Assembly: GCA_963696405.1 (NCBI GenBank)
Contig: CAVOJY010000002.1
Coordinates: forward strand, 259,803-323,802
Direction: 5' to 3'
Length of the DNA: 64,000 nt
DNA from: an uncultured Chloroflexia bacterium
GTDB taxonomy: Bacteria > Chloroflexota > Limnocylindria > Limnocylindrales > CSP1-4
Part shown: one piece after another, positions 12,657 through 40,432 of the stretch
How the letters are laid out: each line of letters begins with the position of its first letter
Position numbering within the stretch: position 1 is the stretch's first letter
Translations under genes and position numbers: made by a program
The notes under the pieces: generated by a model
What the model was told of the DNA's origin: nothing
What the model saw: the letters and a program-made list of their open reading frames with translations, nothing else
Database searches by the model: none

Positions 12657-15042
12657 TCAGGCGACGTCCGGGATCCGCATGTCGTCCGGCGCGCGTCGTC
12701 CCGCACGCCGCCCCGCGCCGCCCTGCGCCCCCGCCTGGCCCCGCTCCCCGGTGAGCGCGGCGAGCAGCGCCTCCGCCATCCGCTTCCCGTCGCCGCCTGT
12801 CTCGAGCCGCGGGCCGGTGCACGCCGGGCACCCCGCCTCGCAGGGGCACTTCCGGACCAGGTCGAGCGCCCCCGCGACAAGCTCGAGATGCCGCTCGTAG
12901 AGCCGGTGCGCGAGCCCGACCCCGCCGGGCACGCCGTCGTAGAGGTAGACGACCGGCCGTTCGGCGTGCGGCGACCTCACCTGCACGACCAGCCCGAGAT
13001 CGTGCGGGTCGCTCATGAGCAGGAGGCTGCCGATCGCCTGGAGTGCTCGCCCCGCGCCCACCAGGGCCACGTCGAGATCGTCACGGCGCCAGCCCGCGAC
13101 CGCCTCCCCGTCGAAGGCAACCCAGTACGCCGTCGTGTGCATTTCCAGCTCGGGGAGATGGATTCGGCCCCACCCGAGGTTCTCGTTCGTCTCGAGCTTC
13201 AGCTTCTTGTAGATCGTGGCGAGCGTGCTCAGCATGACCTCGCCGTGGCACCGCTCGCCCGCAGGGACCGGTGTCGACGCGAACGTGTCGAGCGGTTTCA
13301 GTGTCACCGCGAGGTCGGCCTGCGTGTAGTGGCCCACGTCCACCCGGCGGACGTACGCCTTCCGCTCGTCCCAGTCGAGGCGGTCCACGTGGAACTGCGC
13401 CGACTCGTGGAGGTAGATCGCGCCTTCGTGGACGAGGGTCGGCGCGGAGAAGAGGTCCACCTCCCCGATGACCCGGGGGCGATCGCCGGTGGTGTCGATG
13501 ATGACCACGTTCTCCGGGGCGGCCGTCCGGAGCGAGATTTCGCTCGCCGGGAAGTTCTCGCTCGCCCAGTACCAGCGGCCGTCGTGCGCCTGTCGCACGT
13601 GGCCCTCCTCGGCGAGGAACGCGAGGAGGTCGTCGGCAGGACCAGGGCCAAACGCCTCGCCCGGCGCGAAGGGCAGCTCGAATGCGGCCGCCCGCAGGTG
13701 CGCGAGGAGGACGTGGAGGTTGTCGGGATCGAGGCGCGCCTCCTCCGGCGAGCGGTCGAAGAGGTACTCCGGGTGCGCGGCGACGTACTGGTCCACGGCG
13801 CTGCTCGTGGCGACGAGTGCGGCCACGCTGGCATCGGTGCGGCGGCCCGCCCGGCCCATCTGCTGCCAGGTCCCGGCGATCGAGCCCGGGTAGCCGGCGA
13901 GGACGGCCGCGTCCATCCGCCCGATGTCCACGCCCAGTTCGAGGGCGTTCGTGGCCACCACCCCGAGCACCTCGCCCGACCGCAGCCCCTCCTCGATGGC
14001 CCGCCGCTCGCGTCGGCAGGTATCCGCCGCGGTAGCCCCGCACGCGATCCACCGGCCCCCGCCCCTCGCGGAGCGCCTCGCGCAACCCGCTGAGGAGCAA
14101 CTCGACCCCCACCCGGGACCGGCCGAAGACGATCGTCTGGTGCCCGGCGCGCATGAAGGCGAGGGCGACCCGGCGCGAGAGCCCGTACGCGCTCGCCCGA
14201 ACGCCGAGCGACGCATCGAGCATCGGCGGATCGAGTATTAGGACGTGACGCTCGCCCGACGGCGCCCCGTTGCGGTCGATGAGCCGCGGCTCGCGTCCCG
14301 TGAGCATCCGAGCCAGCTCGGCGGGGTTCCCGATGGTGGCCGAGCAGCAGACGATCTGCGGCCGGCTGCCGTAGTGGTCGCACACGCGGAGGAGCCGCCG
14401 CAGCACGTTCGCAACGTGGCTTCCGAAGACCCCCCGGTACGTGTGGAGCTCGTCGACCACGATGTACCGCAGCTGCTCGAAGAGCTGGAACCACTTCGTG
14501 TGGTGCGGCAGGATCGCCGAGTGGAGCATGTCGGGGTTCGTCACCACGACCTGCCCGGCCGAGCGGATCGACGAGCGGATGGGCGCCGGCGTGTCGCCGT
14601 CGTACGTTGCGCAGGCGACGTCCACCCCCGCGGCGGCCGCCAGCTCGCGAAAGGCCGCCACCTGGTCCTGGCCCAGGGCCTTGGTGGGGAAGAGGTAGAG
14701 GGCGCGGGCAGCGGCGTCCCCGGCAACGGCCTCAAGAACCGGGAGGTTGTAGCAGAGCGTCTTGCCGGAGGCGGTCGGGGTCACCACCACGACGTCCTCG
14801 CCCCGCCGCAGCGCCTCGATGGCCTCGGCCTGGTGGCTGTAGAGCTGCTCGATGCCCTGCGAGGCGAGGCCTGCCACCACGCTCGGGTGCAGCCACGAAG
14901 GGAGTGGCGCGTAGGAGCCCTCCCGGACCGGGACGACGCGATGTTCCACCACGGTGGAGGAGATCGATGGGTCCGCGAGCAGCTGCTCGAGGACCGAAAC
15001 GACCGGGGCCGGCGAGTAGAGACGCATCGCACCATACCGCAC
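12657..15042 (-). pseudogene. mrfA: DEAD/DEAH-box helicase with C-terminal DUF1998 (YprA/MrfA family), single frameshift
   Basis: N-terminal part is in ORF 13081..15042 (LYSHQAEAIE, VVVTPTASGKT, VVDELH). C-terminal part is in ORF 12657..14216 (ATNALELGVDIG, CPCEAGCPAC). Frames join between YRGGYLPT and ERRAIEEG at about 14005-14020. Alternative start ATG 15027. Confidence 0.8.
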
Positions 15043-15241: not shown

Positions 15242-15733
15242 ATGAGTCGGCCGGAGCCGGGACTCCGGTTCGCGTACGAGCGGGCCGGGCACGAGGCGAG
15301 CAGTCGCGTCACCGCTCCCGTGAGCCGATCGGGCACGCCCGCGACCGACCCGTCGTCTTCTCCCTGGTTCGACCGTCGGGCGCTCCTCCTGCTGATCCTC
15401 GTCGTTGCCGTCGCGTGGCTCGTGTTCGTCTTCGGTCGTGCGGTCGCCGACTCCAAGGCGGCCACCGATCGCGCCGAGCGGGCCCGGGCGGAGAATGCCG
15501 CGATGGAGCGCCGCCTCGACTCGCGACAGGTCGAGCTGGCGACGGTCCAGTCGCCGGCGTTCGTCACCCTCCAGGCGCGCACGTTCGGCATCGGGTCGTC
15601 ACGGGAGCAGGTGTTCGGGCTCGAGCCGGGCGCCCCCCCGCCGCCATCGATCCCCATGCTCGGCGAGGAGCCGGCCGCCGCGGGACAGTCGAGTCCGCTC
15701 GACGACTGGCTCGACCTCCTCTTCGGGCCCTGA
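15242..15733 (+). CDS. FtsB/DivIC-like septum formation initiator family protein
   Basis: Cytoplasmic N-terminus, one TM helix (ALLLLILVVAVAWLVFVF), then a coiled-coil-like segment (KAATDRAERARAENAAMERRLDSRQVEL). Start supported by the promoter geometry. Confidence 0.55.
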   Translation: MSRPEPGLRFAYERAGHEASSRVTAPVSRSGTPATDPSSSPWFDRRALLLLILVVAVAWLVFVFGRAVADSKAATDRAERARAENAAMERRLDSRQVELATVQSPAFVTLQARTFGIGSSREQVFGLEPGAPPPPSIPMLGEEPAAAGQSSPLDDWLDLLFGP

Positions 15734-15747
15734 GGCAACGGGGCACC

Positions 15748-15820
15748 GCCCCCGAGGTGGCAGACACTGCCCCCGAGGTGGCAGACACTGCCCCCGAGGT
15801 GGCAGACACTGCCCCCGAGG
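15748..15820. repeat. perfect 21-bp tandem repeat x3.5 (gcccccgaggtggcagacact) carrying three phased 13-bp palindromes GGCAGACACTGCC
   Basis: Units at 15748-15768, 15769-15789 and 15790-15810, partial unit 15811-15820. Palindromes at 15759-71, 15780-92 and 15801-13. Intergenic. Confidence 0.95.
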
Positions 15821-15928
15821 CACCCCGGCAAGACCCCGGCGCAGCCCGGTAAGCTATCGGCGGAGGCCGCGGCGCGGCACAGCGGTTCGCAGGGGACTGC
15901 TGCCGGCGCCGGGCCACGGGAGGCGTCG

Positions 15929-21811: not shown

Positions 21812-22726
21812 ATGCGCCGGATCGTCGTCGCGTTCTGCCTTCTCGTCGTGGCCCTGGCGACTGTCGCCGCCTTGCTCGACGGGTGGGCGCTCCGGAACGT
21901 CCTCGACCGGGACCGGTTCGCCGACCGCGCGTCGGCCCTGCTCGCGACCCCCGAGGCGCGGAAGCTGCTCGCCGACGAACTGGCCGGCCAGCTCGCGGTG
22001 GCCGTCGCGCCGAAACTGGAGTCCCTTGGCCTCCCGCAGCTCGCCGAACCGGACAGCCTCGCCCGCGTCGTCGCGCCGTCACTCGTGTCCGCGCTCGCGA
22101 GTCCCGCCGTCGGGGCCCTGCAGCGCCAACTCCTGCTCTCGCTTCACGACGCCGCGTTCTCGGGTGTCTTCGAGCAGGGATCGGGCGCTGGCCTCGAGGG
22201 TTCCCGGATGATCCTGGACCTCCGCCCCGCGCTCGCCGGCTTCACCGCCGGACTGCCCGCCCAGGCGGCCGGGGTGGTCGCGGCCATCGCGCCGGAGGAG
22301 CTCGTGTTCAGGGTGGCCGACGTGCCGCAGCTCGCGGCCGCGCGCGACGCGCTGCGGTTGGCGGCGGTCGGCCTGCCGGTCTCGGTGGCGATCGGGATCC
22401 TGGCGGCCCTGATGGCGGTTCTCGCCGCTGCGCGCCGATCCAGGGCGATCGCGGGGGTCGGGCTCGCAGTGGCCCTCGGCGGGCTCCTCGTGCTCGCCGC
22501 GACGTACCTGGCGGAGCCCCTCTTCGACATGGTCGTCCGTCCGAGCCTCGCGGCGAGCCTGGCGGCCGACGTGCTCCGCGAGGCCGCACAGGATCTCGTG
22601 TCGCCGAGTCTCGTGGTCGTCGCCGTGGGACTCGCGATCGTCGGCCTCGGCCTGCTCGCCGGCGCGATCCGGGGTCACGGCCCTCGCCGTGCCCACCCGG
22701 ATTACGTCCGCGAGCCGGGACGCTGA
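21812..22726 (+). CDS. hypothetical integral membrane protein
   Basis: 304-aa intact ORF with N-terminal and several C-terminal TM helices. GAGGG SD. Confidence 0.55.
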   Translation: MRRIVVAFCLLVVALATVAALLDGWALRNVLDRDRFADRASALLATPEARKLLADELAGQLAVAVAPKLESLGLPQLAEPDSLARVVAPSLVSALASPAVGALQRQLLLSLHDAAFSGVFEQGSGAGLEGSRMILDLRPALAGFTAGLPAQAAGVVAAIAPEELVFRVADVPQLAAARDALRLAAVGLPVSVAIGILAALMAVLAAARRSRAIAGVGLAVALGGLLVLAATYLAEPLFDMVVRPSLAASLAADVLREAAQDLVSPSLVVVAVGLAIVGLGLLAGAIRGHGPRRAHPDYVREPGR

Positions 22727-22789: not shown

Positions 22790-23679
22790 TCAGCGTCGTT
22801 GTGCTCGTCTCCCGCCCGTGCCGTGCAACTCGGGGGCAAAGGCCCCGGCGATGTCGCCGAACTTGGTGAGCCTGCAGCCCGCCTTCACTCGCTGGAGCTC
22901 CTCGTAGCGCTCGTCGTCCACGAAGGCGACGATGCGCGCGATGCAGCTCTCGCCGTCCACGAGGCGCCACGGGAAGCAGCCGATCGTGCACGCGCTGGTT
23001 CAGCAGCAGGTCGATGTCGCCGCCCAGGCACTCGGCGTGGATGATGCCGTCGTTGAACATCTCGAGGTGCATGAGCTGGTACTTGCGAGTCGTCGAAGAA
23101 CTCGGCGAGCGGCTTGCCGTACTTCTCGCGGAAGTGCTCGTCGGCCTGGCGGGCCTGGCGCGGCATCCAGTCGCGGATGATGGTGTTCATGGGGTGGTCG
23201 GCGCTGCCGCAGTCCACGCCGATCCAGCGGAGCTTCTTCGTCTTGGCCCACTCGGCGAACTCGCGGTCGGGGCCGGGGTGCTTGACCATGTAGGCGATCT
23301 CGTCGGCGGTGGGCTGGTCCCAGCCGTAGTGGTGGTAGCCGGTGTGGATGATGAGGATGTCGCCCGTCGCGCACCTCGACGCGCTCCTCGACCATCTTCG
23401 AGGTGTAGACGTCGTAGTCGCCGACAGCGTCGGAGAGGTCGACGATCGCCGCCTTCGCCGACGAGGAAGTCGAGGTCGAAGCGAGGCGATGTCCTTGCCC
23501 GGCGTGTAGAAGTGGATCTCGCCGTCGAGGTGCGTGCCGACGTGGTTCGAGTGGGTGAGGATCTGGCCGTTGGCGCCGTTCGGGGCGAGCCGCTTGAAGT
23601 ACTTCATCTGCAGCGGCTCGTAGGTCGGCCACGGCGGGGTGCCGATGCCGAGCGGGATCGTCAGGTCGATGAGCTTCAT
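22790..23679 (-). pseudogene. putative cyclase family protein (kynurenine formamidase-like), multiply frameshifted
   Basis: ATG 23679 after GGAGGAGGAG. Protein is recovered from ORFs 22885..23679, 23000..23632, 22308..23072 and an unlisted frame ending at TGA 22790. Five switches, near 23487, 23460, 23368, 23088 and 22995. Motifs HVGTHLDGEIHF and GDILIIHTGYHHYGW. Confidence 0.75.
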
Positions 23680-23710
23680 GGCTCCTCCTCCGTGCGAGCG
23701 TGGCGGCGTG

Positions 23711-25002
23711 TCAGCGTGGCTGGCGGGAGCGTGGCTCGCGAAGGCGAGCGAGCGCCTCGCGGAAGCAGTCGAACGGCGGCTTCACGAGCCCCGCGCCGAC
23801 CATGCCGACGCCGGGCGTCCGGTGCGCGATGCCGGTGTTGACGACCGGCACGACGCCGGTCTCGACGACCTTGAGGAGGTCGATGCCGGTCGCGGTGCCG
23901 CGGAAGTCGAGCGCCGGGATCTGGTAGACCGGGTGCTCGGCGAGCGTGATGTCGTACATGCGGACGGGTGAAGGCGAGCGCCTGCGCGGCGCTGCCGCCC
24001 ACGAACTGCACGATGGCGGGCGCCGCGGCCATGGCCATGCCGCCGAGGCCGGCGGTCTCGGTGATCGACCGAGTCGCCGATGTCGGGCGCGGCGTCCGCC
24101 GGCGCCGAAGCCCGGGCAGGTAGAGCCCATCCACCATCGGCGCGGGCGCGGTGAACCAGCGCCCGGGCAGCCCCGCCACCTGGATGCCGAAGTCGGTGCC
24201 GTTGCGCGCCATGACGGTGATCATGGCTGGAGGCCGCGATGCCGGCCGCGGGGTCGAGCGAGGCACTTGCTGCGCCGCCATCGAGAGGTTCAGGAAGAAG
24301 TGGTCGTTGCCGTCGAGGAAGCGCAGGACCGCGGCGACGTCGTCCGGGCCGGCTCCGACGCTGCACCAGGTGCGGCGCCAGGGCGCGGATCAGCAGCGAC
24401 GTGGCCGCGCGGTTGCGGTTGTGCACCTCGTCGCCCATCTGCAGCGCCTGGGCGATGAGCGCTGCGCAGGTCGAGCGGCCCGTGCGCTGCCAGCGCCTGC
24501 TGCAGCGAGCGGGGCGAGCACGCGTCTCCATCCAGCGCAGGCGGGTCGATGACCTCGTCGTCGTAGGCGCCGTAGCGCAGCACCTTGCCGAGGCCCTCGT
24601 TGAGCGTGGCGTAGGCGCGGTTGCCGAACGCTGTCGTTCTCGACGATCCAGACCGGCATCGAGGCGGTGACGATGCCTGCCATCGGCCCGACCGCCGCGT
24701 GGTGGTGGCACGGCGCGAACGTCGACCTCGCCGGAGGCGGCCAGCCGTTCGCGCCTCCTCCGGCGTCCTTCGCCAGGCCCTCGTAGACGAGCCCGCCGAT
24801 GACCGCGCCGCGGGTCGGGCCGCTCATGCGCTCCCACGTCGACCGGCGGCCCGGCGTGCAGCACGAGGTCGCGGCGCATGCCGGGGATGACGTCGAGCGC
24901 CCGGCCGATGCCGACGACGACGGGTCTGGCAGCGAGCAGGCGGTCCACGGACTCGGCCGTGGCCGCGGCGATCTCCGGGCGCACCTCGCCGTCCGGACCC
25001 AT
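23711..25002 (-). pseudogene. DUF1116 (YlbE-like) protein, multiply frameshifted
   Basis: Pieces across ORFs 23782..25002, 24390..25037, 24290..24583, 23676..24281 and 23711..24130: VIPGMRRDLVLHAGPP, ERMSGPTRGAVIGGLVYEG, FAPCHHHAAVGPMAGIVTASMPVWIVEN, LRYGAYDDEVID, AQALQMGDEVHNRNRAATSLL, VVNTGIAHRTPGVGMVGAG. At least 10 frame switches. Confidence 0.7.
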
Positions 25003-25083
25003 GCAGGCCGCGAGTGCGGCCTGCAGCGATGCAACACCCCGGCGCGGTGGGCGGCGGGGCCTTTCCGGGGGCCTCGAGGGCGG

Positions 25084-27475
25084 TCACCGAGCTCCCCGGC
25101 TCGCGGCCGCGCGCTTGAGGCCCAGGTAGACCCGCTCCGGATCGAGCGGCAGCTCGAAGAACTCGACGCCGGTGGCGTTGGCCACCGCGTTGCCCACCGC
25201 GCTCGGCACCGAGATCATGGGGTGCTCGGCCACGCCGCGCGCGCCGTAGGGGCCCTGCGGGTGCGGCGTCTCGACGAAGAACTGCTGCATCTCGGCCGGG
25301 ATGTCCTTGGCCGTCGGGATCTTGTAGTCGGCGAACGAGTTGTTGAGCAGCCGCCCTTCCTCGAAGACGAACTTCTCGATCACGCGCCGAGCCCAGCCCC
25401 TGCACGACGCCGCCGATCGACCTGCGCTGCGGCACTGCTGCGCGGTTGAGCACCTTGCCGGCGTCGAAGGCCGAGGCGATCTTGAGCACCCGGATCTGCC
25501 CGGTGTCGGTGTCCACCTCGAGCTCGACGCCGTGCGCGCCGTAGGTCCAGTTGAGCGCCGGCAGCCCCTGGCCGGTCTCGGGGTCGAGGTTCGTGAGCCC
25601 GTGCGCGATGTAGCGGCCCTGGCCGATCACCGGCCCGCCGATGCTGTTGCCGTCGGGGTACGTGTAGCCGAGCACGATCTGGCTGTAGTCGAGCTTCTGC
25701 TCCGGCTGCCCCGCGCGCCCACACCTTGCCCGTCGCCGCACTCGATCTGCTCGGCCGGCACGCGCAGCACCTGCGCGGCGACGCGCCGGATCTGGTCGAG
25801 GCACTCGCGCGCCGCCTCGATGATGGCGTTGCCGCCCATCACCGCGAAGCGGCTCGCCACCGTCTGCCAGTCGTACGGGCGTGTAGTCGGTGTCGCTCTC
25901 CCAGGGCACGCGCACCTTCTCGAGCGGCGATGCGCAGCTCGTCGGCGGCGATCTGGGCGAGCGTCGTGTAGGTGCCCTGGCCGTAGTCCACGCCCGCTCA
26001 CCAGCACGTTCGCCGAGCCGTCGCCGTTGAAGAGGATGGTCGCCGAGCACGAGGTGAAGGTCGGCATGGCGGGCGCCTTGTGCAGCATGGCGATGCCCTT
26101 GCCGCGCACGATGCCGCGCGCCGGGCGCGACCGGCGCCGCCGGCCGCGCGCCGCCGGGTCCCAGCCGATCGCCTCGGCCACCAGGCGCAGGCACTCGTCG
26201 GGGCGGCCGTGGCCCTCGGTGAACGCGCTCGCCGGTGATGGTGGTCTCGCCCACGCGGAGCAGGTTCTTGCGGCGGAACTCGAACGGGTCGATCCCCAGC
26301 GCGCGGGCGACGAGGTCCATGTTGCGCTCGATGCCCCAGAGCACCTCGAGGTGGCCGAAGCCGCGGTAGGCGGTGCCGAAGATCTTGTTCGTGTAGACCA
26401 CGAAGGAGTCGATGCTTGCAGTTCGGCACGACGTAGGGGCCCGGCGCCCGAGTAGGCCGCCGCGCGCCCGATGTTGACGCCGTAGTCGGCGTAGGCGCCC
26501 GCGTCCCAGAGGTACGTGATGTCGAGCGCGGTGATGCGCCCGTCGCGCGGTGACGCCGGTGCGGATCGATGCTCGTCGAGCCCCTGGCGCGAGGGCAGCG
26601 TGTTGAACTCCTCCTCGCGGGTGGCGACGATCTTGACCGGCCGCCCGCCGGCCGCCTTCGACAGGCAGTAGACGAGCGGCTCGAGGTGGATGCCCGCCTT
26701 GCCGCCGAAGCCGCCGCCGACGTACGGGCACGCGCACCCGCACCTTCTGCAGCGGCAGGCCGAAGGTGTGGCAGAAGAGCGAGCGCACCGTGAACGGCGA
26801 CTGCGCCGAGGTGACGATCTCGACCTCGCCGTCGGCGCGCGCGGTGGCGATCGCGGTGTGGGTCTCCAGCGGCACGTGCTGCACCGGCGGGTTCTCGGAA
26901 GCGGAACTCGAAGACCCGGTCGGCCTCGGCGAAGCCCTCCCCGACGTCGCCCTTGCGGATCTTCTGGTGGTGGGCGACGTTCCGGCCCGGCTGCGGGAAG
27001 AAGACACCCTTCATCCACGAGTAGTCCGCCAGGTCGGGGTGCACCTGCGGCGCGCCCGTCGCGCGAGCGCGGCCTGCACGTCGAGCACCGGCGCGAGCGG
27101 CTCGTACTCGACCTCGATCGCCGCGCACGCCGCCGCGCGCCTGCTCGACCGTCTCGGCCGCCACCGCGGCCACCGCCTCGCCCTGGTGGCGCACCACGCC
27201 GCGGGCGAGGATGTCCTTGTCCTCCATGTAGAGGCCGAGCTTGTACGGGCAGGTCGGCGCCGGTGAGCACGGCCTTCACGCCGGGCATCGCCCGCGCCTT
27301 CGACGTGTCGATGCGCACGATGCGCGCCGACGGCGTGCGGCGAGGTGAGGATGCGGGCGTGCAGCATCCCCGGCAGCGCCATGTCGTGCACGAACAGGGC
27401 CGAGCCGGTGACCTTGGCGGCACGCGTCGACGCGGTTCGCCGCGCCGCCGACGTAGGGCGCCGACGGGCGCGGGC
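25084..27475 (-). pseudogene. xanthine dehydrogenase/aldehyde oxidase family molybdopterin-binding subunit (CoxL-like), multiply frameshifted
   Basis: Pieces in ORFs 27011..28192, 25627..27930, 25998..27227, 24824..27007, 25380..25724 and 25084..25383: KVTGSALFVHDMALPGMLHARIL, QHVPLETHTAIA, VGGGFGGK, YRGFGHLEVLWGIE, GAHGVELEVDTDTGQIRVL, GARGVAEHPMISVPSAVGNAV. The 5' boundary is approximate. No stop is seen in the locally coherent frame linking it to the 2Fe-2S part. Confidence 0.75.
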
Positions 27476-27958
27476 GACGGCCGGTACGTGCCGCCCGCGC
27501 CACCGCCTCGACCGCCTGGACGAGCGGCTCGTAGCCCGGTGCAGCGGCAGAGTTGCCGGCGAGCGCCTCGACGATCTCGTCGCGCGTGGGGTGCGGGTTG
27601 CGGCGCAGCAGCGCGCGGGCCGAGTTGAGCATGCCCGGCGTGCAGAAGCCGCACTGGATGGCGCCGAAGTCGACGAACGCCTGCTGCAGGTCCGAGAGCA
27701 CGCCCGACGCCCGGGGTCTCGCCCTCGGCGGTCTCGATGACCGCGCCGTCGGCCTCGACCGCCAGCACCAGGCAGGCGTTCACCGGCTGGCCGTCCATGA
27801 TCACCGTGCAGGCGCCGCACTCGCCGATGCCGCAGCCGCCCTTGACGCTCTGCAGGTGGAGATCGCCCTTCAGCAGGTCGAGCAGCGTGCGCTCCGCCGG
27901 CACCTCGAGCGTCACGGTCTCGCCGTTCACCGTGAGGGTGATCGGGATAGGTCTTCAT
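27476..27958 (-). pseudogene. (2Fe-2S)-binding subunit or domain (CoxS-like), frameshifted
   Basis: ATG 27958 after GGGGAGGG. Motifs KGGCGIGECGACTV, QCGFCTPGM and LCRCTGY recovered from three frames. The first switch follows MKTYP at the G run 27944-27946. May be fused to the Moco part. Confidence 0.7.
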
Positions 27959-28828
27959 GACGCCCTCCCCGCGCTGCCGAGGAGCCGCGCGGCGAGCCGC
28001 CGGCAGAGGAGGGCGGCCATGTCGCGCCGGTACTCGGCCGAGGCGCGCACGTCGTCGATCGGGCAGATGTGCTCGAGCGCCAGCGCGGCCAGCGCGCTCC
28101 CGACCTCCGCGGGATCGGCGTCCGGGTCTACGCCCGCTAGCGGCGGCGACGAGCACCGGCGTCACCCCGCAACTCCCGATGGCCACGCGCATCGTGCCGC
28201 GCCACCGGGTCGAAGGCCGCCGCCGCGTTCACCAGCGCCAGGTCGTGCCCGCCAGCGCGCTTGATCTTGTCGAAGGCGCTGCGCAGCCCCGGCGACCGGC
28301 CGCGGCACGACGCACCGCCGTCACGATCTCGTCGGGCGCCAGCGCGGTCTTCTTCACCCCGCGGAAGAACTCGGCGAGCGGGATCTCGCGCGCTGCCGCC
28401 GCGGTCCGGCGACCCGGAGCGCGCGCGCCCAGCACCGAGCAGCGGCGGCGCCGTGTCCATGCACGGCGAGGCGTTGGCCAGGTTGCCGCCGACCGTCGCG
28501 CGCGAGCGGATCTGCAGCGAGCCGATCGCGCCCGCGCCCTCGGCGAGCGCCGGGAAGGCCTCGCGGATGCGCGGGTCCTCGGCGATGCGTCTGCACCGAG
28601 CACGCAGGCGCCGAGCACGAGGTCGCCCGCCGCCGTCCAGCGCAGATCCGCCCAGCCGGGGATGCGCTTGATGTCCACGCACCAGGTCGGGACGCATCTC
28701 GCCCGACGCGCAGCGCGACCAGGAGGTCGGTCCCGCCGGCCAGCACCCTCGCCCGCCCGGCGGCGGCGGCGAGCAGCGCCGTGGCCTCGGCGACGGTGGC
28801 CGGCCGCTCGTAGCGGAAGCTCGCTCAT
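27955..28828 (-). pseudogene. FAD-binding subunit of the molybdenum hydroxylase (CoxM-like), multiply frameshifted
   Basis: ATG 28828 overlaps the upstream stop (ATGA); stop 27955 overlaps the next ATG (ATGA). Pieces: LAGGTDLLVALR, VVDIKRIPGW, IRSRATVGGNLANASPCMD, REIPLAEFFRGVKKTALAPDEIV. Confidence 0.7.
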
Positions 28829-29199
28829 GGCGTCCTCACCCCGCCTCGCGCCGCGCTCAGGCCGACGCCGAAGACCAGGCCGCGGATCTCCTTGCCGCCG
28901 ATCTCGCGCACCGTGCCGACTGCGCGCCCGCACGCGCATCGCCGGTCCGCGGCTCGGCGATGTCGAGCCGCCCGGTGGCGCGCACCCCCATGTCCATCTC
29001 GACGATCCCGAGCGTGATGTAGAGGTCCTCGTAGTCGAGCGGCAGCGCGTAGACGCGCGTCCAGGTCAGGAGCTTGCCCTCGCCCTCGATCGGCACCGGC
29101 TCGAACTGCGTGCCGCGGCACGCCGGGCAGTAGAAATGGGTCGGGTAGGAGAGCTTGCCGCAGCTCGTGCACTTCGCGGCGTCGACGGTGCGTGGCCAT
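28825..29199 (-). pseudogene. DUF35 Zn-ribbon/OB-fold protein (thiolase partner), frameshifted
   Basis: ATG 29199. CTSCGKLSYPTHFYCPACRGTQFEPV and GEGKLLTWTRVY lie in ORF 28857..29348. Start and C-terminus are in the 28825..31161 frame. Confidence 0.7.
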
Positions 29200-29200
29200 G

Positions 29201-30396
29201 TCACACCCCCCGCTTGAGCACGGTGGCGAGCACGTTGTTGCCGAAGCCGCCGAAGTTGACGGCGAAGCCGTTCTTCGGGCTGGTTCGGCACCTGGTAGTC
29301 GCCCGCCTCGCCGCGCAGCTGCAGCACCAGCTCGACGATCTGCGACACGCCGGTGGCGCCGACGGGGTGGCCCGCGCGCCTTCAGCCCGCCCGAGGGGTT
29401 GATGGGCAGCCGGCCGCCGATCTGCGTCTCGCCGCGCTCGAGCGCCATGTGCCCCTGGCCCTTCGGGAAGAAGCCGGCCTCCTCGCTCTCGGCGATCTCG
29501 AGGATGGTGAAGGCGTCGTGCAGCTCGGCCACGTCGATGTCCGCCGGGCCGAGGCCCGCCATGGCGAAGGCCTTCTCCGCGGCGAGCCGCACCGCCGTCA
29601 GCTCGGTCGGGTCGGGCCGCTCGTGGACCGCGTGCGTGTCGGTGGCCTGGCCGATGCCGGCGATGCGCACCGGCGTCCTTGCGCGAACTCCTTGCGCCAT
29701 CGACGCGGGCGCCAGGAGCACGGCCGCGGCGCCGTCGCTCACCGGGCAGCAGTCGAAGAAGCGCAGCGGCTCGGCGATCCACGGGTTGTTCATCGCCGCG
29801 TCGGGCCCGGTGAGGAGGCCCTCCATGGTCACCGGGATGCGCAGGTGCGCCTTGCGGTTCAGCGCGCCGTTGGCGTGGTTCTTGATCGCCACCATGGCCA
29901 GGTGCTCCGGGCGCGACGCCGTAGCGGTCCATGTAGAGCCGCGCGAACATCCCGGCCAGCGCCGGCAGCGTGACCCCGTAGAGGTACTCGGCGTAGCGGT
30001 GCGAGAGGTACGAGACGAACTCGGTGGCCTCGAAGTTGTTGACCTCGCTGCATGCGCTCGCCGCCGCACACCAGCACCAGGTCGCACATCCCGGAGGCCA
30101 CCGCCTGGAACCCGTGCTTGACCGCGGAGGCGCCGGAGGCCGGGCCGTTCTCGATCGTCTCGGCGGCCGCGGGGATAGAGGTTCAGAGCCGGTCGACCAG
30201 GGCGCTCGCGAGTCCCGCCTGCCGGTTGTTGCGGGCCGAGCCCATGTTGGCGACGTAGACCGCGTCGATCGTTGCGCTCGCCGATGCCGGCGTCGGTGAG
30301 CGCGTCGTGCGAGGCCTCGCACATCATCTTGAGCAGACTCCACTGGGCGCGCCCGAACTGCGTCGAGCCGACGCCGACGATGGCGACGTCTCTCAT
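29201..30396 (-). pseudogene. thiolase-domain protein (SCP-x / nonspecific lipid-transfer type), multiply frameshifted
   Basis: ATG 30396 after GGAGG. MRDVAIVGVGSTQFGR start. Pieces in ORFs 28825..31161, 29201..30343 and 29859..30101: CCPVSDGAAAVLLA, AELHDAFTILEI, INPSGGLKA, GHPVGATGVSQIVEL. Confidence 0.7.
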
Positions 30397-31161
30397 AGCC
30401 GGGCCTCCAGCGTGTCCTCGATCTGCACCAGCATGGTGCGCAGGTCGGGCTCGCGGAGCGGGTACGACGCCGCCAGCAGCTCCTCCGAGACCGGACGCGT
30501 GCCGCTCACCAGGCGCGACTTGGCCTTGAAGTACGTCTCGCGGCGTGAGCACCCAGGAGGGCGCGCCGCCCAGCTCGTGCTGGACCTCGAACTTGCGGTC
30601 GAGCGGGTACTCGATCATCCAGCGGCGGTGGCCGATGGGGCTCTCGGCGACGATCCACACCTCGTCCTGGCCCGAGGTACTCGATGTGGTGCTCCATCTT
30701 CGAGGCGAACAGGTGGGCGCCCGACGCGCAGGCCCGCGCTTCAGCGTCAGCGTGTGGTAGCTGATGCCGTGCTGCTCGTCGAACATGCGGCCGTTGACGA
30801 TGCCGGCCAGCACGCCGTCGATCACGCCGACCAGGCAGTACTCGTTGCGCACGCGGTAGGTCTTCCAGCCGAGCAGCTCGGCGAAGAGGCGCGCCGCGAC
30901 GATGTCGTAGAAGTCGCGGTCGAGCCAGACGAGCGGCTGGATGAACCCCAGCATCGCGTCCACCTCGTCGACCGAGGCCTGGCGCACGACCATGATCTCG
31001 CCGCTGGCGAGCAGTGATCGCCTTGGGCGGGATAGGGGGCCATGGGCAGCACGGGTGGCCGCAGCATGGCCTCGAGCTCGATCGATCATCCGCTCCTCCT
31101 CGGGGGTGAGCGGCTCGCCGGTGTCCCAATCGATGCGCGGACGGTTCATTGCCGTGGTCAT
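30393..31161 (-). pseudogene. hypothetical protein (no domain recognised), multiply frameshifted
   Basis: ATG 31161. Pieces in three frames, for example VRQASVDEVDAMLGFIQPLVW, HLFASKMEHHIEYLG, EVWIVAESPIGHRRWMIEYPL. Natural-looking C-terminus YFKAKSRLVSGTRPVSEELL...IEDTLEARL ends at a TGA overlapping the thiolase ATG. Confidence 0.5.
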
Positions 31162-31176
31162 GATCGTTCCCGCGTC

Positions 31177-31540
31177 CTACGGTGTCTCGGTCGGCGGGTT
31201 CCTGGCAGGGATTGTGATCCGGTCCCCCAACAAGAATCCGGTCAGGGTTCTTGATTTGGGGGTTCGCCTTCAGGAGCGCCGCCAGCGTCACGCCGTACTT
31301 CTGCGCGATAGCCAGGAGCGTGTCCCCCGCCACCGCTACGTGGACGACCGGCGTGGGCGAGGGTTCAGGCGTCACGATCACGGGAGTCGGTGTTGGAAGC
31401 GGGGACGTCGCGGTCGGCTGAGGCGTTGCCGCAGCCGTTGGCGTGGGAGCCGGGGTGACGTAGATGATGATGGGAGTCGGGGCCGGACCGGAACAGCCAG
31501 CGAGCACTACAGCCACCGCGAGGATGGCGGTCCTGCGCAT
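31177..31540 (-). pseudogene. LysM-domain lipoprotein, one homopolymer frameshift near the 3' end
   Basis: Lipobox VLAGCS, Pro/Thr linker, LysM (VAVAGDTLLAIAQKYGVTLAALLKANPQIKNP). Removing one C from the C5 run 31224-31228 gives ILVGDRITIPARNPPTETP-stop at 31177. Confidence 0.7.
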
Positions 31541-35302: not shown

Positions 35303-35547
35303 GACTCGCGGTCCGCGGTGCGGAACGCCCCCGCGATCTCCTCAGCCTCGCGCCGGAACTCCGGATCCTGCGCCGCCCGCGCCCACAGGTCGGCCTCTGC
35401 GGCATCGCGCACTCGGCGGGCGAGCTCGTCGATCGCCAGCTCAACCGCTGCGTCTTGCGTCGGGGCCACGTGGTACTCGGCAACCAGGTCGCGCACCGCC
35501 TTCACGGCATGGTCGGACAGGTTGTACGTCCGCTTGGCTCTTCCCAC
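35290..35547 (-). CDS. putative antitoxin (ribbon-helix-helix-like N-terminus)
   Basis: 85 aa from GTG 35547. KRTYNLSDHAVKAVRDL strand-helix start. Positioned immediately upstream of, and overlapping, the MazF-like gene. Confidence 0.55.
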   Translation of the reverse strand: MGRAKRTYNLSDHAVKAVRDLVAEYHVAPTQDAAVELAIDELARRVRDAAEADLWARAAQDPEFRREAEEIAGAFRTADRESWPA

Positions 35548-35553
35548 GGATCG

Positions 35554-35605
35554 AGTCTGACACACGTAATGCGACGTGTCAATGTGGGTGTCGATACGAC
35601 ACGTC
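35554..35605 (-). promoter_or_regulatory. candidate leaderless promoter TTGACA-17-CAGACT with overlapping GACACGTC/GACGTGTC inverted repeats (probable TA operator)
   Basis: Minus-strand TTGACA (35582-35577) and CAGACT (35559-35554), 6 nt before GTG 35547. Half-sites GACGTGTC at 35573-80 and GACACGTC at 35598-605; a related TGACACACGT at 35558-67. Confidence 0.45.
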
Positions 35606-35965
35606 AACAGATCCGTTGACCCCCATGCCGTCGGGCGTACTGGTGGGCGGGCAAGGCCGCGCATCTCGCAGCTCCATACGAGCGGACCGACAAACCGGGC
35701 CGGGACGCCCGCAACCGAGTGAGGCAGGGCGCCGAGCCAGGCCGTCCGCCGCCTCAACCGCACCCGGATGGTGGCGAGGGTGGGCGGGCGGCAGCGGACG
35801 GCATGCCGGCCCGGGCGAGGTACCGGGCCAGTTCGGTCGCGTCTCTGGCGCTCCCCAGGGCCATCGGGGAGGCAGCCCAGCGGCAGCGCCGTCGGCGCCG
35901 GGGCGACATGAGCGACCGGGCGCAGGACCGGCCTCCCCGTCCGGAGCGCACCTCAGGACTTGTCA

Positions 35966-35984
35966 GGGCCGAGCCGTTCGGCCC
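35966..35984 (-). terminator. stem-loop 12 nt downstream of the Zn-ribbon gene (no U tract)
   Basis: GGGCCGA-gccgt-TCGGCCC, a perfect 7-bp stem. Confidence 0.3.
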
Positions 35985-35995
35985 ACGGGCCCGGC

Positions 35996-36277
35996 TCAGC
36001 CGGCTGCGAGCTGGCGAGCCTTTTCCTTGCGCTGCTTGACCCACCGGGAGATCGCGACGGAGAGGGCTACGCTCACGATGACGTTGATGATGACCCGCGC
36101 GGCGATGGCGGCCGGCCGAGGCTTGCGCCCGGCGCGCCGGCGCTTCATCTCTTCGGTGTCGAGGAAGATCCCGCGGCACTGCGGGCAGCGGAGCGGTCCC
36201 TGCCCACCGCGCCACATCGGCTTCATCTCGATGCCGCACTTCGGGCACACGAGCGGGGTTTGCTGCGATTCGGTCAA
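35996..36277 (-). CDS. zinc-ribbon protein with a C-terminal transmembrane helix
   Basis: CPKCG...CPQCRG pairs, then VIINVIVSVALSVAI. TTG 36277 lies 6 nt after AGGAGG. Confidence 0.65.
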   Translation of the reverse strand: MTESQQTPLVCPKCGIEMKPMWRGGQGPLRCPQCRGIFLDTEEMKRRRAGRKPRPAAIAARVIINVIVSVALSVAISRWVKQRKEKARQLAAG

Positions 36278-36368
36278 CAGTCGGTCCTCCTGTCGGGAAG
36301 TCGGCGCCGCGTCCCAGCTTGAGTGCGTCTGGTACCACTGACGGCGTGCCCGCCGGCAGGCCGCGAGC

Positions 36369-36728
36369 CTATTTGGGGCGGGCCGTCTTCTTGCCGAAGA
36401 TCACGAGGACACTCGGCCCGTCACCATCGATCCTCGGGATGACGCGCACGCCGAGCTTGTGTTGCTCGGCGACCTTGCCCAGAGCGACCGCGAGCATCGC
36501 GAGTCGCGGGATTCCGCGAGCGGCGACTTCGCGAACGTCGGCCTCAAGTGCGCCGTGGTCACCGGGGCCACCCAGCCAGACCCTCAGCAGATGGCCGCCG
36601 CCCTCGAGGCGCAGCAGGGTGGCCGCCGAAGCGTCGGGTACAGGTGACGCCACGGGCGCGGGTAACGCCACGGGCGCGGGTAACGCCACGGGCCGGGGAG
36701 TCCGCACGGGCACCAGCGGTGCCGTCAT
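36369..36728 (-). CDS. hypothetical protein with a Pro/Val/Ala repeat N-terminus
   Basis: ATG 36728 after GAAGGA. 119 aa with PVALPAPVALPAPVASPVP repeats. No recognised domain. Confidence 0.4.
   Translation of the reverse strand: MTAPLVPVRTPRPVALPAPVALPAPVASPVPDASAATLLRLEGGGHLLRVWLGGPGDHGALEADVREVAARGIPRLAMLAVALGKVAEQHKLGVRVIPRIDGDGPSVLVIFGKKTARPK
36643..36696. repeat. 18-bp tandem repeat x3 (coding, in frame)
   Basis: ggtgacgccacgggcgcg / ggtaacgccacgggcgcg / ggtaacgccacgggccgg. Confidence 0.9.
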
Positions 36729-37262
36729 CGATCCTTCACGATCCGAGTATGGCGCATCTGGGGCGACCACGCCGGGCGGATCGGTTCGGCTCGTGTCATT
36801 CTTGACGGCGCCCGCGGTGACGCCGGTCGCGTATGGGACGATGATGATCGCCAACGCGTGGTCGTCCTACCTTCCCGACGCGGTGAAGGTCATCGCTCCC
36901 TTTGCGATGGGGCTGCCGATCGTGGCGGCCTCGCTGCGCCTGTTCGACCGGGGGAGGGCTGGGCGCTCGGGCAGAGCTGCCCCGAGTTGAGCGGCGGGGC
37001 GTGCGGGCCTGTGAAGTGAGGCGACCGGAGTTTCCGCCGCTCAGCCATCACCGGGCTGCGAGAGCGGACTTCGCCCATGGGGCGTGCCCCGGGACGGGAC
37101 CATCAGCGTCCGGCCGAGCACGAGTCCGCGGCTGTTCGGGCTCGGAGCGACAACGCCGGGTCGCAGCGCCGCGACCGACGTTGTCGTGCAGCCCGCCGGT
37201 GAATGAGCGGCAGGACTCGGCGGTAGCCGGGGCGGGGTACAACCCGGGGCTCGAACGCGGGC

Positions 37263-38498
37263 TCAGACGGCAGTCAGCAGCGGCGCAATCCGCGACCGGT
37301 AGATGGCCTCCCAGGAGTACTCGCGCCGCACCCTGCGGGCGAACCCAAGCACGCGGTCGGGCTCGAGGCGATCAAGGACACGGGCTGCGACAACGGCCGG
37401 CCCGTCGTCGGTCGAGATGTAGCTGGCCGAATCGCCGGCGAGCGACCGGAGGGTGCCGAGGTCGGCACAGATGATCGGCAGGCGGTGGGCCCCGGCCTCC
37501 AGGATGGGCAGGCCGAAGCCCTCGTCGAGGCTCGGCAGGAAGAGGGCGTCGGCGATCCGGTAGAGGTCGCCCACGATCGCGTCGGATGGTGCGCCCTCCG
37601 GCTCGGTGGCCAGGAACCGGACGGCGCGGTCGAGCCCCAGCACGGCCTGGAGTGCCAGCAGTTGCCCGACCAGGTCCCGCTCGGCAGGACGGTGCGGATC
37701 GACCGGGCCGGTGACGATGAGCCCGGCGGGTCGGCCGGCGGAGCGTATCGCCGCGATCACCCGGAGTGCGAACTCGATGTTCTTGCGGGGCGTCATGCGC
37801 GCAGGCATGAGCAGGAGTGGCTCCAGGCCGGAGAGGTCGGCCCAGGCCAGGACCTCGGCCGACCGGGGCTCCAGCCGCAGGAGGCCCGGCACGTCGAGTC
37901 CGTTCGGCACGACGGCGATCGACTCGGGGCGCAGGCCGGTGAGGCCGGCGAGGTCGTGACGGCGGGCCTCGGAAACCACGACTTGCAGCGCGCCCGGCCA
38001 GGCCTCCCGGAGCAGGTCCCAGGGCGGGCCGTCGTGGAGCGTCGATCGGTACGAGGATGACGTCCAGGCAAGATCGTGGTGCCAGATGACCAGCCGCGGC
38101 GGCGTCCCCCCGTCAATCACCTCGCGCAGGGCGGTGGTCAGGGCCAGGTTCAGGCCCAGCGAGCAGACGTTGTGCACGATGGCGACATCCGCCCCGGCCA
38201 GCGCCTCCGTGAGCGCTGTCCGCAGGGTTGCGACGGCGTCGCCGAACCCGGGCGGCACCGTGCCCGCGGCGAGATCGAACTGGAGACGCTCGATGGTCGG
38301 GTGACTCGCGTCCATGAGCGGGATCTCGACGAGGCGGCACCTAAGATCAGGCGACTCGCCGCGCCCCACCACCACGCGGACGTCGTGCCCTGCATCGGCC
38401 ATGAGGATCGCGTGGCGGGCGAGCACCCGCTCGACGCCCCCCACGACCGGTGGGGCCGTGTAGTGGACGAGGGCGATGGCAAGCCCGTCCGGGTTCAT
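37263..38498 (-). CDS. GT4-family (GT-B) glycosyltransferase
   Basis: ATG 38498. LAIALVHYTAPPVVGGVERV N-terminus and the EGFGLPILEA E-x7-E region. Confidence 0.8.
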   Translation of the reverse strand: MNPDGLAIALVHYTAPPVVGGVERVLARHAILMADAGHDVRVVVGRGESPDLRCRLVEIPLMDASHPTIERLQFDLAAGTVPPGFGDAVATLRTALTEALAGADVAIVHNVCSLGLNLALTTALREVIDGGTPPRLVIWHHDLAWTSSSYRSTLHDGPPWDLLREAWPGALQVVVSEARRHDLAGLTGLRPESIAVVPNGLDVPGLLRLEPRSAEVLAWADLSGLEPLLLMPARMTPRKNIEFALRVIAAIRSAGRPAGLIVTGPVDPHRPAERDLVGQLLALQAVLGLDRAVRFLATEPEGAPSDAIVGDLYRIADALFLPSLDEGFGLPILEAGAHRLPIICADLGTLRSLAGDSASYISTDDGPAVVAARVLDRLEPDRVLGFARRVRREYSWEAIYRSRIAPLLTAV

Positions 38499-38508: not shown

Positions 38509-39849
38509 TCATGCCGTTTCCGCGAAGCACTCCGCGAGCAGGGCGGACAGGCGTTGCTCCAGGACGGTGAAGGAGAAGTGGCGCCGGGCCAGGGTGAAGT
38601 TGGTCTCCGCCCACTCGGCCGCGAGGGCCGGCTCCTGCAGGAGGCGGCGCGCCTCGCGGATGGCCGCACTGGTGACGTAGTTGTCGAGCTCCACGACGCG
38701 GAACCCCCGCGGCTTGATGTCGATCTCGTACACGGAGTAGCGGTTCACGACGAGCGGCCGGCGGTAGTAGACGGCCTCGAGGAACGCGTTGCCGAAGCCC
38801 TCGATGGTGGAGGGGTAGGTGACCAGGTCGGCGCGCGCGAAGGTGTCGGCGAGCGAGTAGATCCGGCGTCCGTCGGGCGTCATGCCGCGCGACACGCCCA
38901 CGATCACAGATTCGAAGCGGACATGGACGTCCAGCAGGTGCGCGAACTCCCGGACGCGCTCGGCGTAGTCGGTGCCCTCGTCGCCGTCGGCGTGGGTGAT
39001 CACGAGCGTCGCGGGGACGCCCAGGCGACGGGTCAGCTCGATGGCATGCTCGATGCCCTTGCGCTGGATGACCCGCGTCGGTTGCAGGATCAGGTACTCG
39101 TCGGGCTTGATCCCCAGGTCGGTGCGCGCTCCGTCGGCGTACGCGTCCGGCGGTCCCGGTGGCCGGTCGAAGTCCATCACGTTGGGGATGACCCGCGAGG
39201 CGAGGCCGGTGCGCCAGGCCAGCTGCTGGGCCTGGACCGAGTTGATCACCACGTGGCGGACGGACGGGAGTGCAGGAGGGAACGCGGCCCGGATGTAGTC
39301 GCCGACGCTGTTGACCGCGAAGCGCTGGCGCTCCCACGGAAAGTCGTGATGGTGCGCGATGACGGGGATCCCGGTCTCCGCGATGACCTCGGTCAGGGCC
39401 AGCCCGAGGGGGAGGTTGAGCGGGATGGCCAGGGCGTTCTCGGTGACCAGGAGATCGAGGTCGAAGTCGCGCAGGAAGTCGTACAGCTCGCCCTTCAGGT
39501 GCTGGCGCAGCTCATCGATCCGGGCCGAGATGGTCGGGGGCCGGACGTACGGCGAGAAGAAGTCGCGCCGGTGCACCGACGGGTGCTCGTCGTCGGCGGT
39601 CGCGGTCACGTCGAAGCTGCCCCCGAAGACGACCGAGTTGATGGCGTCGATGTCGGGGTGCCGGTAGAAGGCCTCCGACACCAGCCGGCTGCGTTCAGGC
39701 GGGCGGTCGAGCTGGCCGGCGAAGTAGTAGCAGGTCGCGCCGAGGCGTCCGAGCACGGATTCCCACTTGGCGGTCTCAAGCGAGACGCCATCGGTCCCTG
39801 CGAGCCGAGTCGAGATGATGCCGATCCGGTGGGCGCGGCCTGCTGTCAT
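38509..39849 (-). CDS. GT-B glycosyltransferase (GT4-like; family resemblance to sugar-glycerate compatible-solute synthases is only a guess)
   Basis: ATG 39849. IGIISTRLAGTDGVSLETAKW N-terminus and STIEGFGNAFLEAV E-x7-E-like region. TACCCGT-type -10 (TACCGT) 7 nt before the ATG. Confidence 0.7.
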   Translation of the reverse strand: MTAGRAHRIGIISTRLAGTDGVSLETAKWESVLGRLGATCYYFAGQLDRPPERSRLVSEAFYRHPDIDAINSVVFGGSFDVTATADDEHPSVHRRDFFSPYVRPPTISARIDELRQHLKGELYDFLRDFDLDLLVTENALAIPLNLPLGLALTEVIAETGIPVIAHHHDFPWERQRFAVNSVGDYIRAAFPPALPSVRHVVINSVQAQQLAWRTGLASRVIPNVMDFDRPPGPPDAYADGARTDLGIKPDEYLILQPTRVIQRKGIEHAIELTRRLGVPATLVITHADGDEGTDYAERVREFAHLLDVHVRFESVIVGVSRGMTPDGRRIYSLADTFARADLVTYPSTIEGFGNAFLEAVYYRRPLVVNRYSVYEIDIKPRGFRVVELDNYVTSAAIREARRLLQEPALAAEWAETNFTLARRHFSFTVLEQRLSALLAECFAETA

Positions 39850-40022
39850 CCCGTCAACGGTACCGCCTTGCGCCGCGGCCGTCCATGAACTGACCTCGTC
39901 CGATGCCTCGCCTGTTCCGCCGCCGTCTCGGCGGAGCCGGGTTACCGCCGGGCAGCCATCCCCAGGCTGCGGGAGGGGAGCTCGGCGATCCGGCAGGCCC
40001 TGACGCGGACTCCTCCGCCGGG

Positions 40023-40086
40023 CGGAGCACGTTCCGTTCGCCATGCACCCCAGCCGGAGCACGTCCCGTTCGCCAACCCACCCCGG
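40023..40086. repeat. 32-bp imperfect tandem repeat x2 (27/32)
   Basis: cggagcacgttccgttcgccatgcaccccagc / cggagcacgtcccgttcgccaacccaccccgg, in the ~600-bp non-coding gap between the glycosyltransferase operon and the tRNA. Confidence 0.8.
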
Positions 40087-40426
40087 CCGGGCCGGCCACG
40101 GGTGGCGCTGCGCCCCTTTCGGCGGTCACGGGACGGCCAAACCCTTCCCGCAACCCCCCAGTGAATGAGCGGCGGACCCAGCAGGCAGCGACCCCGGCAA
40201 GCCCGCCAAGTGCCATCGCGGAGGTCGGCTGTCCAGGCACGTGCGCCGGGTGCCGTCGATCGCTCTCACCAGCGACCCGGACGATCTTGGTGCGCTCCTG
40301 GATCCTTCCCCGGCCGGCACGCGCGTGGAGGTCTGGCGAGTCTGACCGGCGGCCTGGCCGCGCACGTTCCACGCCGACAGATCTCGCGGGGTCGCTCGCG
40401 CGCCGTGCCTCCGGCAATGGACACGC

Positions 40427-40432
40427 TAGAAT
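40427..40432 (+). promoter_or_regulatory. -10 box TAGAAT 15 nt upstream of the tRNA 5' end
   Basis: CGCTAGAATCCGCG resembles the CGCTAGACTCCGCG context of the T-box promoter at 48055-48068. No convincing -35. Confidence 0.35.

Follow-up and report, generated by a model that had tools for sequence, protein, structure and literature searches.

Genes and frame breakage of the operon

The block at positions 22790-31540 of the window (the whole 64,000-nucleotide stretch of DNA analyzed here) is a nine-gene catabolic operon of a Chloroflexota metagenome genome, and all of its features described below are encoded on the minus strand. A small LysM lipoprotein gene (31177..31540), the product of which has a signal peptide with an LAGC lipobox, a Pro/Thr linker and a LysM domain, contains one +1 frameshift in a G5 run (31224-31228), and the Pfam LysM match is cut at profile position 37 of 43. 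The first gene of the conserved operon (30393..31161) encodes a conserved 250-aa protein to which no Pfam family was assigned and carries seven single-base insertions. Five single-base insertions as well as a compensating pair near 30176-30186 (at least two hidden) were detected in a thiolase-like gene of the SCP-x type (29201..30396), while a DUF35/ChsH2-like gene with zinc ribbon and OB-fold (28825..29199) exhibited three, one of them right behind the start codon. The gene for the FAD-binding subunit of a xanthine-dehydrogenase-family enzyme (27955..28828) requires ten frameshifts (seven of +1, two of +2 and one of -1), and the gene for the [2Fe-2S] and molybdopterin-binding subunit (25084..27958), the two parts of which form a single fused gene in most relatives, requires 26 (22 of +1, three of +2 and one of -1). 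The AllG (DUF1116) homolog (23700..25087, with an approximate 3' end) is full length against the 469-aa gene of relative L013 and was affected by 19 frameshifts (16 of +1, two of +2 and one of -2), and the kynurenine-formamidase-like cyclase-family gene (22790..23679; 294 aa) by five single-base insertions. A near-identical intact copy was sought in the protein database and none was found, the best matches of the Moco protein reaching 85-88% identity and those of the cyclase 92%.

Frameshift-aware alignment of intact orthologous proteins to the window DNA revealed that ~76 frame switches, or ~1 per 113 nt, are needed to read the minus-strand genes between 22790 and 31540. These events comprise 66 of +1, seven of +2, two of -1 and one of -2, corresponding to 73 insertions and 3 deletions. 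The traced frames of the block genes are free of in-frame stop codons. The excess of insertions was independently confirmed by DNA alignments to close relatives, with 43 (+1) and 4 (+2) insertions and one 1-nt deletion against L013, 13 insertions and 1 deletion against L012, and 8 insertions and 0 deletions against L010. The last result, shared by L008 and L010 (92-94% nt identity), covers 918 nt that include the 250-aa gene and the beginning of the thiolase gene. According to GC3-phase and 7-state frame tracking, coding-phase segments are only 50-550 nt long at ~22810-31015 compared to 1-3 kb in the flanks. As a control, loci L002, L006 and L007 were put through the frameshift-aware aligner in 18 gene-to-DNA comparisons, none of which produced a frameshift.

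Most of what the original prediction had claimed about the reading frames was borne out. It held that the minus-strand genes are readable only by stitching frames together, and the ~76 switches agree with this, while the seven intact orthologous loci (L001, L002, L006, L007, L012, L013 and L014) require none; the partial operon copies in L008-L010 are free of frameshifts as well. The five cyclase switches it placed near 23487, 23460, 23368, 23088 and 22995 were recovered within ~10 nt, the minimum of ten switches given for the DUF1116 gene rose to the 19 counted by the aligner, and the C5 run proposed to carry a switch at 31224-28 is present, with G5 being read on the coding strand. Likewise, the ATGA overlaps at 27955-58, 28825-28 and 30393-96 and every quoted family motif are preserved, and the absence of in-frame stops from the traced segments held throughout the alignment. 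One of the checks it had proposed, frameshift-aware alignment against intact orthologs, is the one that yielded the 73 insertions, 3 deletions and no nonsense codons.

Flanks, junctions and relatives

Frame tracking identified only 4-5 frameshift candidates in the ~55 kb of flanking DNA, which amounts to about 1 per 11-14 kb and a roughly 100-fold indel enrichment in the block, in line with the five isolated frameshifts and the more than tenfold local rise predicted originally. Closer examination of these candidates revealed a helicase split in +1 direction inside its Helicase_C domain (~14011), a UbiA gene without the start of its profile (~18086) and a +1 insertion relative to the two close relatives L008 and L010 (34070), while 35338 and 55842 are candidates from frame tracking only. 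Four +1 events were also observed in the same operon of another long-read-style contig, L011. A search for mobile-element borders detected neither direct nor inverted repeats flanking the block, the edges of which also lack a tRNA, and an Rfam scan returned a single tRNA and nothing else.

Illumina-assembled close relatives with 88-94% nt identity have both junctions and the gene order in common with the window, and their frames are intact. At the right junction, the first gene of the operon is linked in L008-L010 to the right-flank nitroreductase gene, and at the left junction, AllG and the cyclase are linked in L012 to the left-flank convergent 304-aa gene. L013 exhibits the same order of genes as the window (Moco-AllG(469 aa)-cyclase). 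Because these relatives share the right and left junctions and the gene order, the block is native to this lineage. A 1.7-kb deletion, considered on account of the missing allF and AllG N-terminus, was withdrawn, as the Moco-AllG(469 aa)-cyclase arrangement recurs in L013 and the operon of L012 ends in the same way, likewise lacking allH.

The block may be strain-variable. The correlation of its tetranucleotide profile with the flanks is r=0.94-0.95, compared to 0.98-0.99 between flank and flank, L012 diverges by 2.2% in the flanking gene but by 6.7-10.3% within the block, and the LysM lipoprotein gene present here is missing from the close relatives L008-L010. In contrast, divergence from L008 runs in the opposite direction, with 4.7% in the block and 6.2% in the flank, i.e. 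the block is no more diverged.

Constraint on the restored proteins and placement of the extra bases

The restored proteins were analyzed for changes at constrained positions. None of the 265 columns invariant in 60 homologs was changed in the Fe-S/Moco protein, and the restored cyclase had 0 changes in both the 103 invariant columns and the 152 columns conserved at >=95% among 80 homologs; at positions that set it apart from its closest relative, its residue is usually that of the family majority. Amino-acid identity to L001 was as high for the window proteins as for intact orthologs. In genuine bacterial pseudogenes, the insertion:deletion ratio is ~0.76, for which an insertion fraction of ~0.43 is expected (PMC6054270), and the 73:3 observed here deviates from this ratio with a binomial p of ~1e-22 (based on 71 insertions among 74 events). 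Neither the balanced or deletion-biased indels nor the nonsense codons and relaxed substitutions of a pseudogene cluster were found in the block, and judged from these comparisons biological decay is very unlikely to be the source of the frameshifts. The original prediction had offered an artefact or a very recent inactivation and regarded the two as inseparable from sequence alone. The artefact, including its strain-variable or collapsed version, is strongly supported, while inactivation is contradicted by the 73:3 ratio, the 0 stops and the unchanged constrained residues; comparison with orthologs does separate the two through insertion bias, constrained residues and nonsense codons.

Placement was analyzed for the 32 insertions of unambiguous position, which leans on relatives that are only 88-94% identical. 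Only 7 of the 32 inserted bases fall within a run of identical bases, compared to 53% expected (p=4e-4), and a simulated homopolymer model, in which a run solution exists for a proportion of 0.92, was rejected by the observed 0.45. Together these results led us to reject a homopolymer or slippage origin. The hint taken from switches in short homopolymers is misleading: such switches are few, and overall the inserted base avoids matching its neighbors. Among the 25 non-run insertions, the extra base was a synonymous replacement of the adjacent base in 17 (43.5% expected, p=0.012), and 26 of the 32 touch the third codon position (67% expected, p=0.054); these tests of codon awareness are moderate, with p about 0.01-0.05 after merging duplicate events and 25-32 events each. 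Codon-structured insertions would be produced by selection-filtered polymorphism and not by random noise. On the other hand, roughly one event in four extends GG to GGG or CC to CCC, a change also expected from ordinary insertion noise, and in a protein-level 'slot' analysis, where the aligner itself sets shifts at codon borders, the ratio obtained is consistent with an even distribution over codon positions. No clear match was apparent between the doublet bases and the alleles of close relatives at the right junction. With moderate confidence, the extra base may be described as a plausible, mostly synonymous alternative allele unlike its neighbor.

Origin of the frameshifts

The frameshifts in this Chloroflexota (Limnocylindrales-like) genome are almost certainly a consensus artefact, probably of long-read metagenome assembly, with the merging of two variants as the most likely route. 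The operon would be strain-variable, reads of two co-existing variants would have been merged into one consensus, and at many single-nucleotide differences the consensus step would have written both alleles side by side, every doubly written site adding one base and thereby shifting the frame, while the operon itself would be intact and functional in the organism. We infer the sequencing platform, the two variants in the sample and a polishing step that keeps both alleles; literature confirmation of a specific polisher emitting both alleles at a SNP was not found. The merged-variant route is suggested by insertions that are nearly exclusive, unique to this sequence, unaccompanied by constrained-site substitutions, biased toward synonymous alternatives and rare in homopolymers, and an artefact of the long-read type is indicated by the same error occurring at a low rate in the flanks (34070, helicase) and in L011. 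Collapsing divergent alleles into one consensus leads to INDEL errors and apparent frameshifts (PMC8445201), and long-read-only assemblies retain coverage-dependent indels that truncate proteins (PMC9262707).

The main rival, which we consider possible but hold only tentatively, is likewise an artefact, namely a low-coverage or unpolished long-read segment with residual insertion errors and no mixing of variants, for example an island present in a minority of cells or a gap filled from few reads. Indel-only noise that lacks substitution errors and splits otherwise conserved genes, the dominance of insertions, errors of the same kind in the flanks at about 1 per 11-14 kb and the +1 errors of the long-read-style contig L011 are all consistent with such a segment, as are the dependence of the indel load of long-read assemblies on coverage (PMC9262707) and the compositional island character, which fits a variable island of lower coverage. 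However, random insertions would match a neighbor about half the time and those of homopolymer type more often, which disagrees with the 7 of 32 observed and with the 0.92 of the simulated model, and random errors would show no synonymous preference such as the 17 of 25 found here.

A genuine very recent inactivation, with ~76 real frameshift mutations in a young pseudogene cluster, is highly improbable. The insertions are in the deposited sequence, the catabolic operon is island-like and horizontally mobile, as loci prone to loss often are, and the lineage has already lost allF and allH compared with other phyla. However, bacterial mutation and pseudogenes are biased toward deletions, contrary to the 73:3 found here, slippage at runs does not account for the events, and the close relatives sharing the junctions are intact. 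Moreover, 76 neutral indels would bring several hundred substitutions and several nonsense codons, whereas no stop was found and all 368 invariant columns are unchanged. Even more doubtful is a chimeric misassembly with a low-abundance, Eisenbacteria-like foreign fragment spliced into a Chloroflexota contig. The orthologs found first did come from Eisenbacteria MAGs with flanks non-syntenic with the window, and the block composition is unlike both flanks, but independent short-read contigs of related populations span both junctions (L008-L010 right, L012 left), which led us to reject a foreign insert, and L013 and L012 have the same lineage-specific architecture, which lacks allF and allH. That the extra bases are real in the natural population and the operon is expressed by single-nucleotide skipping at the RNA or ribosome level (dense +1 recoding or nucleotide-deletion editing) appears extremely improbable, and their bypass by programmed +1 frameshifting, transcriptional slippage or RNA editing has a practically negligible likelihood. 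The clean frames between shifts and the preserved translational-coupling overlaps would be expected under recoding, but the sites lack a shared slippery motif or stop-codon context, 0 shifts are conserved in any ortholog, and 76 sites confined to one operon have no precedent. Programmed +1 ribosomal frameshifting of the prfB type occurs at single sites that orthologs share and that depend on a defined motif. Such sites resemble the block in that a +1 shift is needed for read-through, while the ~76 block sites are unconserved and without a shared motif.

Compared with known systems, the block resembles the residual indels of long-read-only assemblies (an IDEEL-type problem; PMC9262707) in its indels without substitutions and its genes broken into many ORF fragments, and the scattered frameshifts elsewhere in the contig and the same type of error in the second contig L011 extend this likeness to the window. 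It is unlike them in being ~100-fold concentrated in 8.7 kb and almost exclusively composed of insertions, which also avoid homopolymers, the length of which is the classic nanopore problem. Collapsed alleles in Trypanosoma brucei Lister 427 likewise gave apparent frameshifts in genes that are intact on each haplotype; there, nearby allelic variants mislead read alignment during consensus building and the frameshifts vanish after haplotype separation (PMC8445201). Lister 427 is a diploid eukaryote, while the two 'haplotypes' of the operon would presumably be co-existing strains in the metagenome. Pseudogenes of the leaf-nodule symbiont Candidatus Burkholderia, which is undergoing genome reduction, share the presence of several independent frameshifts per gene in neighboring genes, but real pseudogenes have more deletions than insertions, larger deletions, nonsense codons and relaxed substitutions (PMC6054270), none of which was seen in the block.

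With the extra bases almost certainly added during consensus building and not by gene decay, the block is a data-quality warning and not new biology. Annotation pipelines would break it into dozens of fragment ORFs or list nine pseudogenes in a public MAG, and such a miscall would distort the pseudogene content, metabolic potential and gene loss estimated for this Chloroflexota lineage. The combination of insertions only, undamaged constrained residues and extra bases resembling second alleles provides a usable diagnostic for such artefacts that draws on the sequence and nothing else, for cases in which reads are unavailable. If two variants were indeed merged, the block would mark a strain-variable, horizontally mobile catabolic operon, which may have modest ecological interest.

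Reading frames in the operon and its flanks

Because the G+C content of the window is about 71%, G+C at the third codon position tracks the reading frame well, and frames were followed with a phase Viterbi and a 7-state strand/frame model. In the flanks these returned coding segments 1-3 kb long; within the catabolic operon (window 22790-31540), from ~22810 to 31015, the segments were just 50-550 nt long and lay on the minus strand throughout, and their pieces gave recognisable proteins on translation. Ortholog proteins were aligned to the window DNA by a purpose-written frameshift-aware dynamic programme, using operons with intact frames from other contigs (L001 and L002 from Eisenbacteria MAGs as well as L006, L007, L012, L013 and L014). 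Frameshifts were placed in the 250-aa gene (7), the thiolase (5 and a compensating pair near 30176-30186), the DUF35/ChsH2-like gene (3), the FAD subunit (10), the Fe-S+Moco gene (26), AllG/DUF1116 (19), the cyclase (5) and a LysM lipoprotein gene (1), with a total of ~76 or 1 per ~113 nt. The traced frames of the block contained no in-frame stop codon, and none of its frameshifts was common to any relative. The same programme found no frameshifts in 18 control comparisons at similar divergence, in which L001 proteins were aligned to L002, L006 or L007 DNA. The dense frameshifting described in the original prediction was confirmed with these intact orthologs as controls, and its coordinates, motifs, ATGA overlaps and run positions were all correct on checking.

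Outside the block most frame changes fall at the stop codon of the upstream gene and are therefore ordinary gene borders. The 4-5 exceptions were located at ~14011 (an MrfA-type helicase split within its Helicase_C domain), ~18086 (UbiA without the N-terminal start of its profile), 34070 (a +1 insertion in a beta-eliminating lyase relative to L008 and L010, two contigs of close relatives), and ~35338 and ~55842 (frame changes without a matching stop codon), in agreement with the five isolated flank frameshifts previously counted. These candidates suggest that residual indels occur across the contig at ~1 per 11-14 kb, compared to 1 per 113 nt inside the block, which bears out the proposed local enrichment. 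Four long stretches in which third-position G+C gave no clear signal (10086-12722, 35516-37274, 39746-40982 and 49834-50522) were labelled non-coding by the frame models; Rfam returned nothing in them except a tRNA-Met at 40448-40522, and they may represent compositionally atypical genes or additional sequence of low quality. A short tandem repeat of ~21 nt in 3-4 copies lies at ~15700-15900, in a stretch likewise labelled non-coding by the frame model, and the peptides APEVADT and GGSVCHL recur in opposite-strand ORF translations.

Indel spectrum and constraint

The events in the block comprised 66 of +1 and 7 of +2 versus two of -1 and one of -2. Plain DNA alignments gave the same picture, with 43 single-base and four two-base insertions and one single-base deletion relative to L013, 13 insertions and one deletion relative to L012, and eight insertions and no deletions relative to L010. 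In curated bacterial pseudogenes the insertion:deletion ratio is ~0.76 (PMC6054270), at which at least 71 insertions among 74 events would have a probability of ~1e-22. Once the extra bases were removed, the restored Fe-S/Moco protein matched 265/265 columns at which 60 homologs are invariant, while many genuine homologs depart at 1-7 of them. The restored cyclase showed no departure at the 103 invariant columns or at the 152 columns conserved at ≥95% among 80 homologs, and where it differed from its nearest relative it usually carried the family-majority residue.

Genuine decay, in which frameshift mutations truly inactivated the operon, is very unlikely on this evidence, since 76 neutral indels should bring hundreds of substitutions and several stop codons, whereas the indels are overwhelmingly insertions, the constrained columns are undamaged and the shifts are peculiar to the window. 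The very recent inactivation initially offered as one of two readings thus loses its footing, while the other, an assembly artefact, gains support from the strong insertion bias, the intact columns and the uniqueness of the shifts. The accompanying view that sequence alone could not distinguish the two was too cautious, as comparison with orthologs separates them.

Source of the extra bases

Extension of homopolymers was ruled out as the source of the insertions, as simulated run duplications had run-compatible solutions 92% of the time versus 45% observed. Among the 32 insertions that close relatives placed unambiguously, the extra base equalled a neighbouring base in only seven, whereas inserting the same base mix at random should give 53% (p=4e-4). 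In 17 of the 25 insertions outside a run the extra base would replace an adjacent base synonymously (43.5% expected, p=0.012), and 26/32 touched a third codon position (67% expected, p=0.054). Typical sites were GT[C][G], GA[T][C], GA[G][A] and [G][A]TC, with each of the two base versions frequently represented among orthologs. This pattern points, with moderate confidence, to reads of two co-existing variants having been merged into one consensus that would have retained both alleles at many SNPs and so gained extra bases, because the insertions tend to follow codon structure, which random noise should ignore but selection-filtered polymorphism would not. Collapse of divergent alleles into INDEL errors and apparent frameshifts has been documented (PMC8445201). 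A strain-variable locus would also fit the jump in divergence from L012, from 2.2% in the flank to 6.7-10.3% in the block, the distinct composition of the block (tetranucleotide r=0.94-0.95 with the flanks, compared to r=0.98-0.99 between left and right flank), and the small LysM gene that separates the operon from the nitroreductase gene (31177-31540); its position holds only about 95 nt in the close relatives L008-L010, so that strains differ in whether they have the gene.

A segment that was simply low in coverage or left unpolished is a serious rival to the merged consensus, since the indel load of long-read assemblies varies with coverage (PMC9262707) and L011, a 'contig_'-named, long-read-style 72-kb contig (ERZ25039554), has four +1 frameshifts in its copy of the operon (L011:4257-8200). 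Three of these split allF and one extends the cyclase, and they look like errors of the same kind from another assembly. Against it stands the codon structure that random sequencing noise should disregard. Under either route, merged variants or low coverage, the frameshifts in the block are an artefact and no biological novelty.

The underlying operon and its place in the lineage

The flanks encode housekeeping proteins, among them FtsH, aconitase, glycosyltransferases and an LCP protein, and the named matches of the aconitase at 70-75% identity were Chloroflexota/Candidatus Limnocylindrales. In the short-read contigs L008-L010 (92-94% nucleotide identity) the first gene of the operon is joined to the right-flank nitroreductase, while in L012 (94%) AllG and the cyclase are joined, without allH, to a convergent left-flank gene of 304 aa. 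The latter gene adjoins the block (21812-22726; L012:1571-2485), has no Pfam family and is conserved in L012 with 2.2% nucleotide divergence and no indels. L013 (88.6%, window 27481-22981) has the order Moco-AllG(469 aa)-cyclase, as in the window, without allF. The joins to both flanks and the order in L013 exclude a chimeric insert, and a 1.7-kb deletion in the window operon was withdrawn given the same contigs.

The order of a 250-aa protein without Pfam family, thiolase, DUF35, FAD, Fe-S/Moco dehydrogenase, (AllF), AllG, cyclase and (AllH) was seen in the window (22790-31161) and in L001, L006, L007, L011, L013 and L014, with the Chloroflexota lineage lacking allF and allH. Named database matches place Eisenbacteria, Sumerlaeota, Deltaproteobacteria, Riflebacteria, Spirochaetes, Clostridia and Chloroflexota among its phyla. 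That so many phyla carry the operon at 70-92% amino-acid identity suggests a horizontally mobile pathway; despite this mobility, judged by the joins to the flanks in L008-L010 and L012 and the gene order in L013, the block is native to this lineage.
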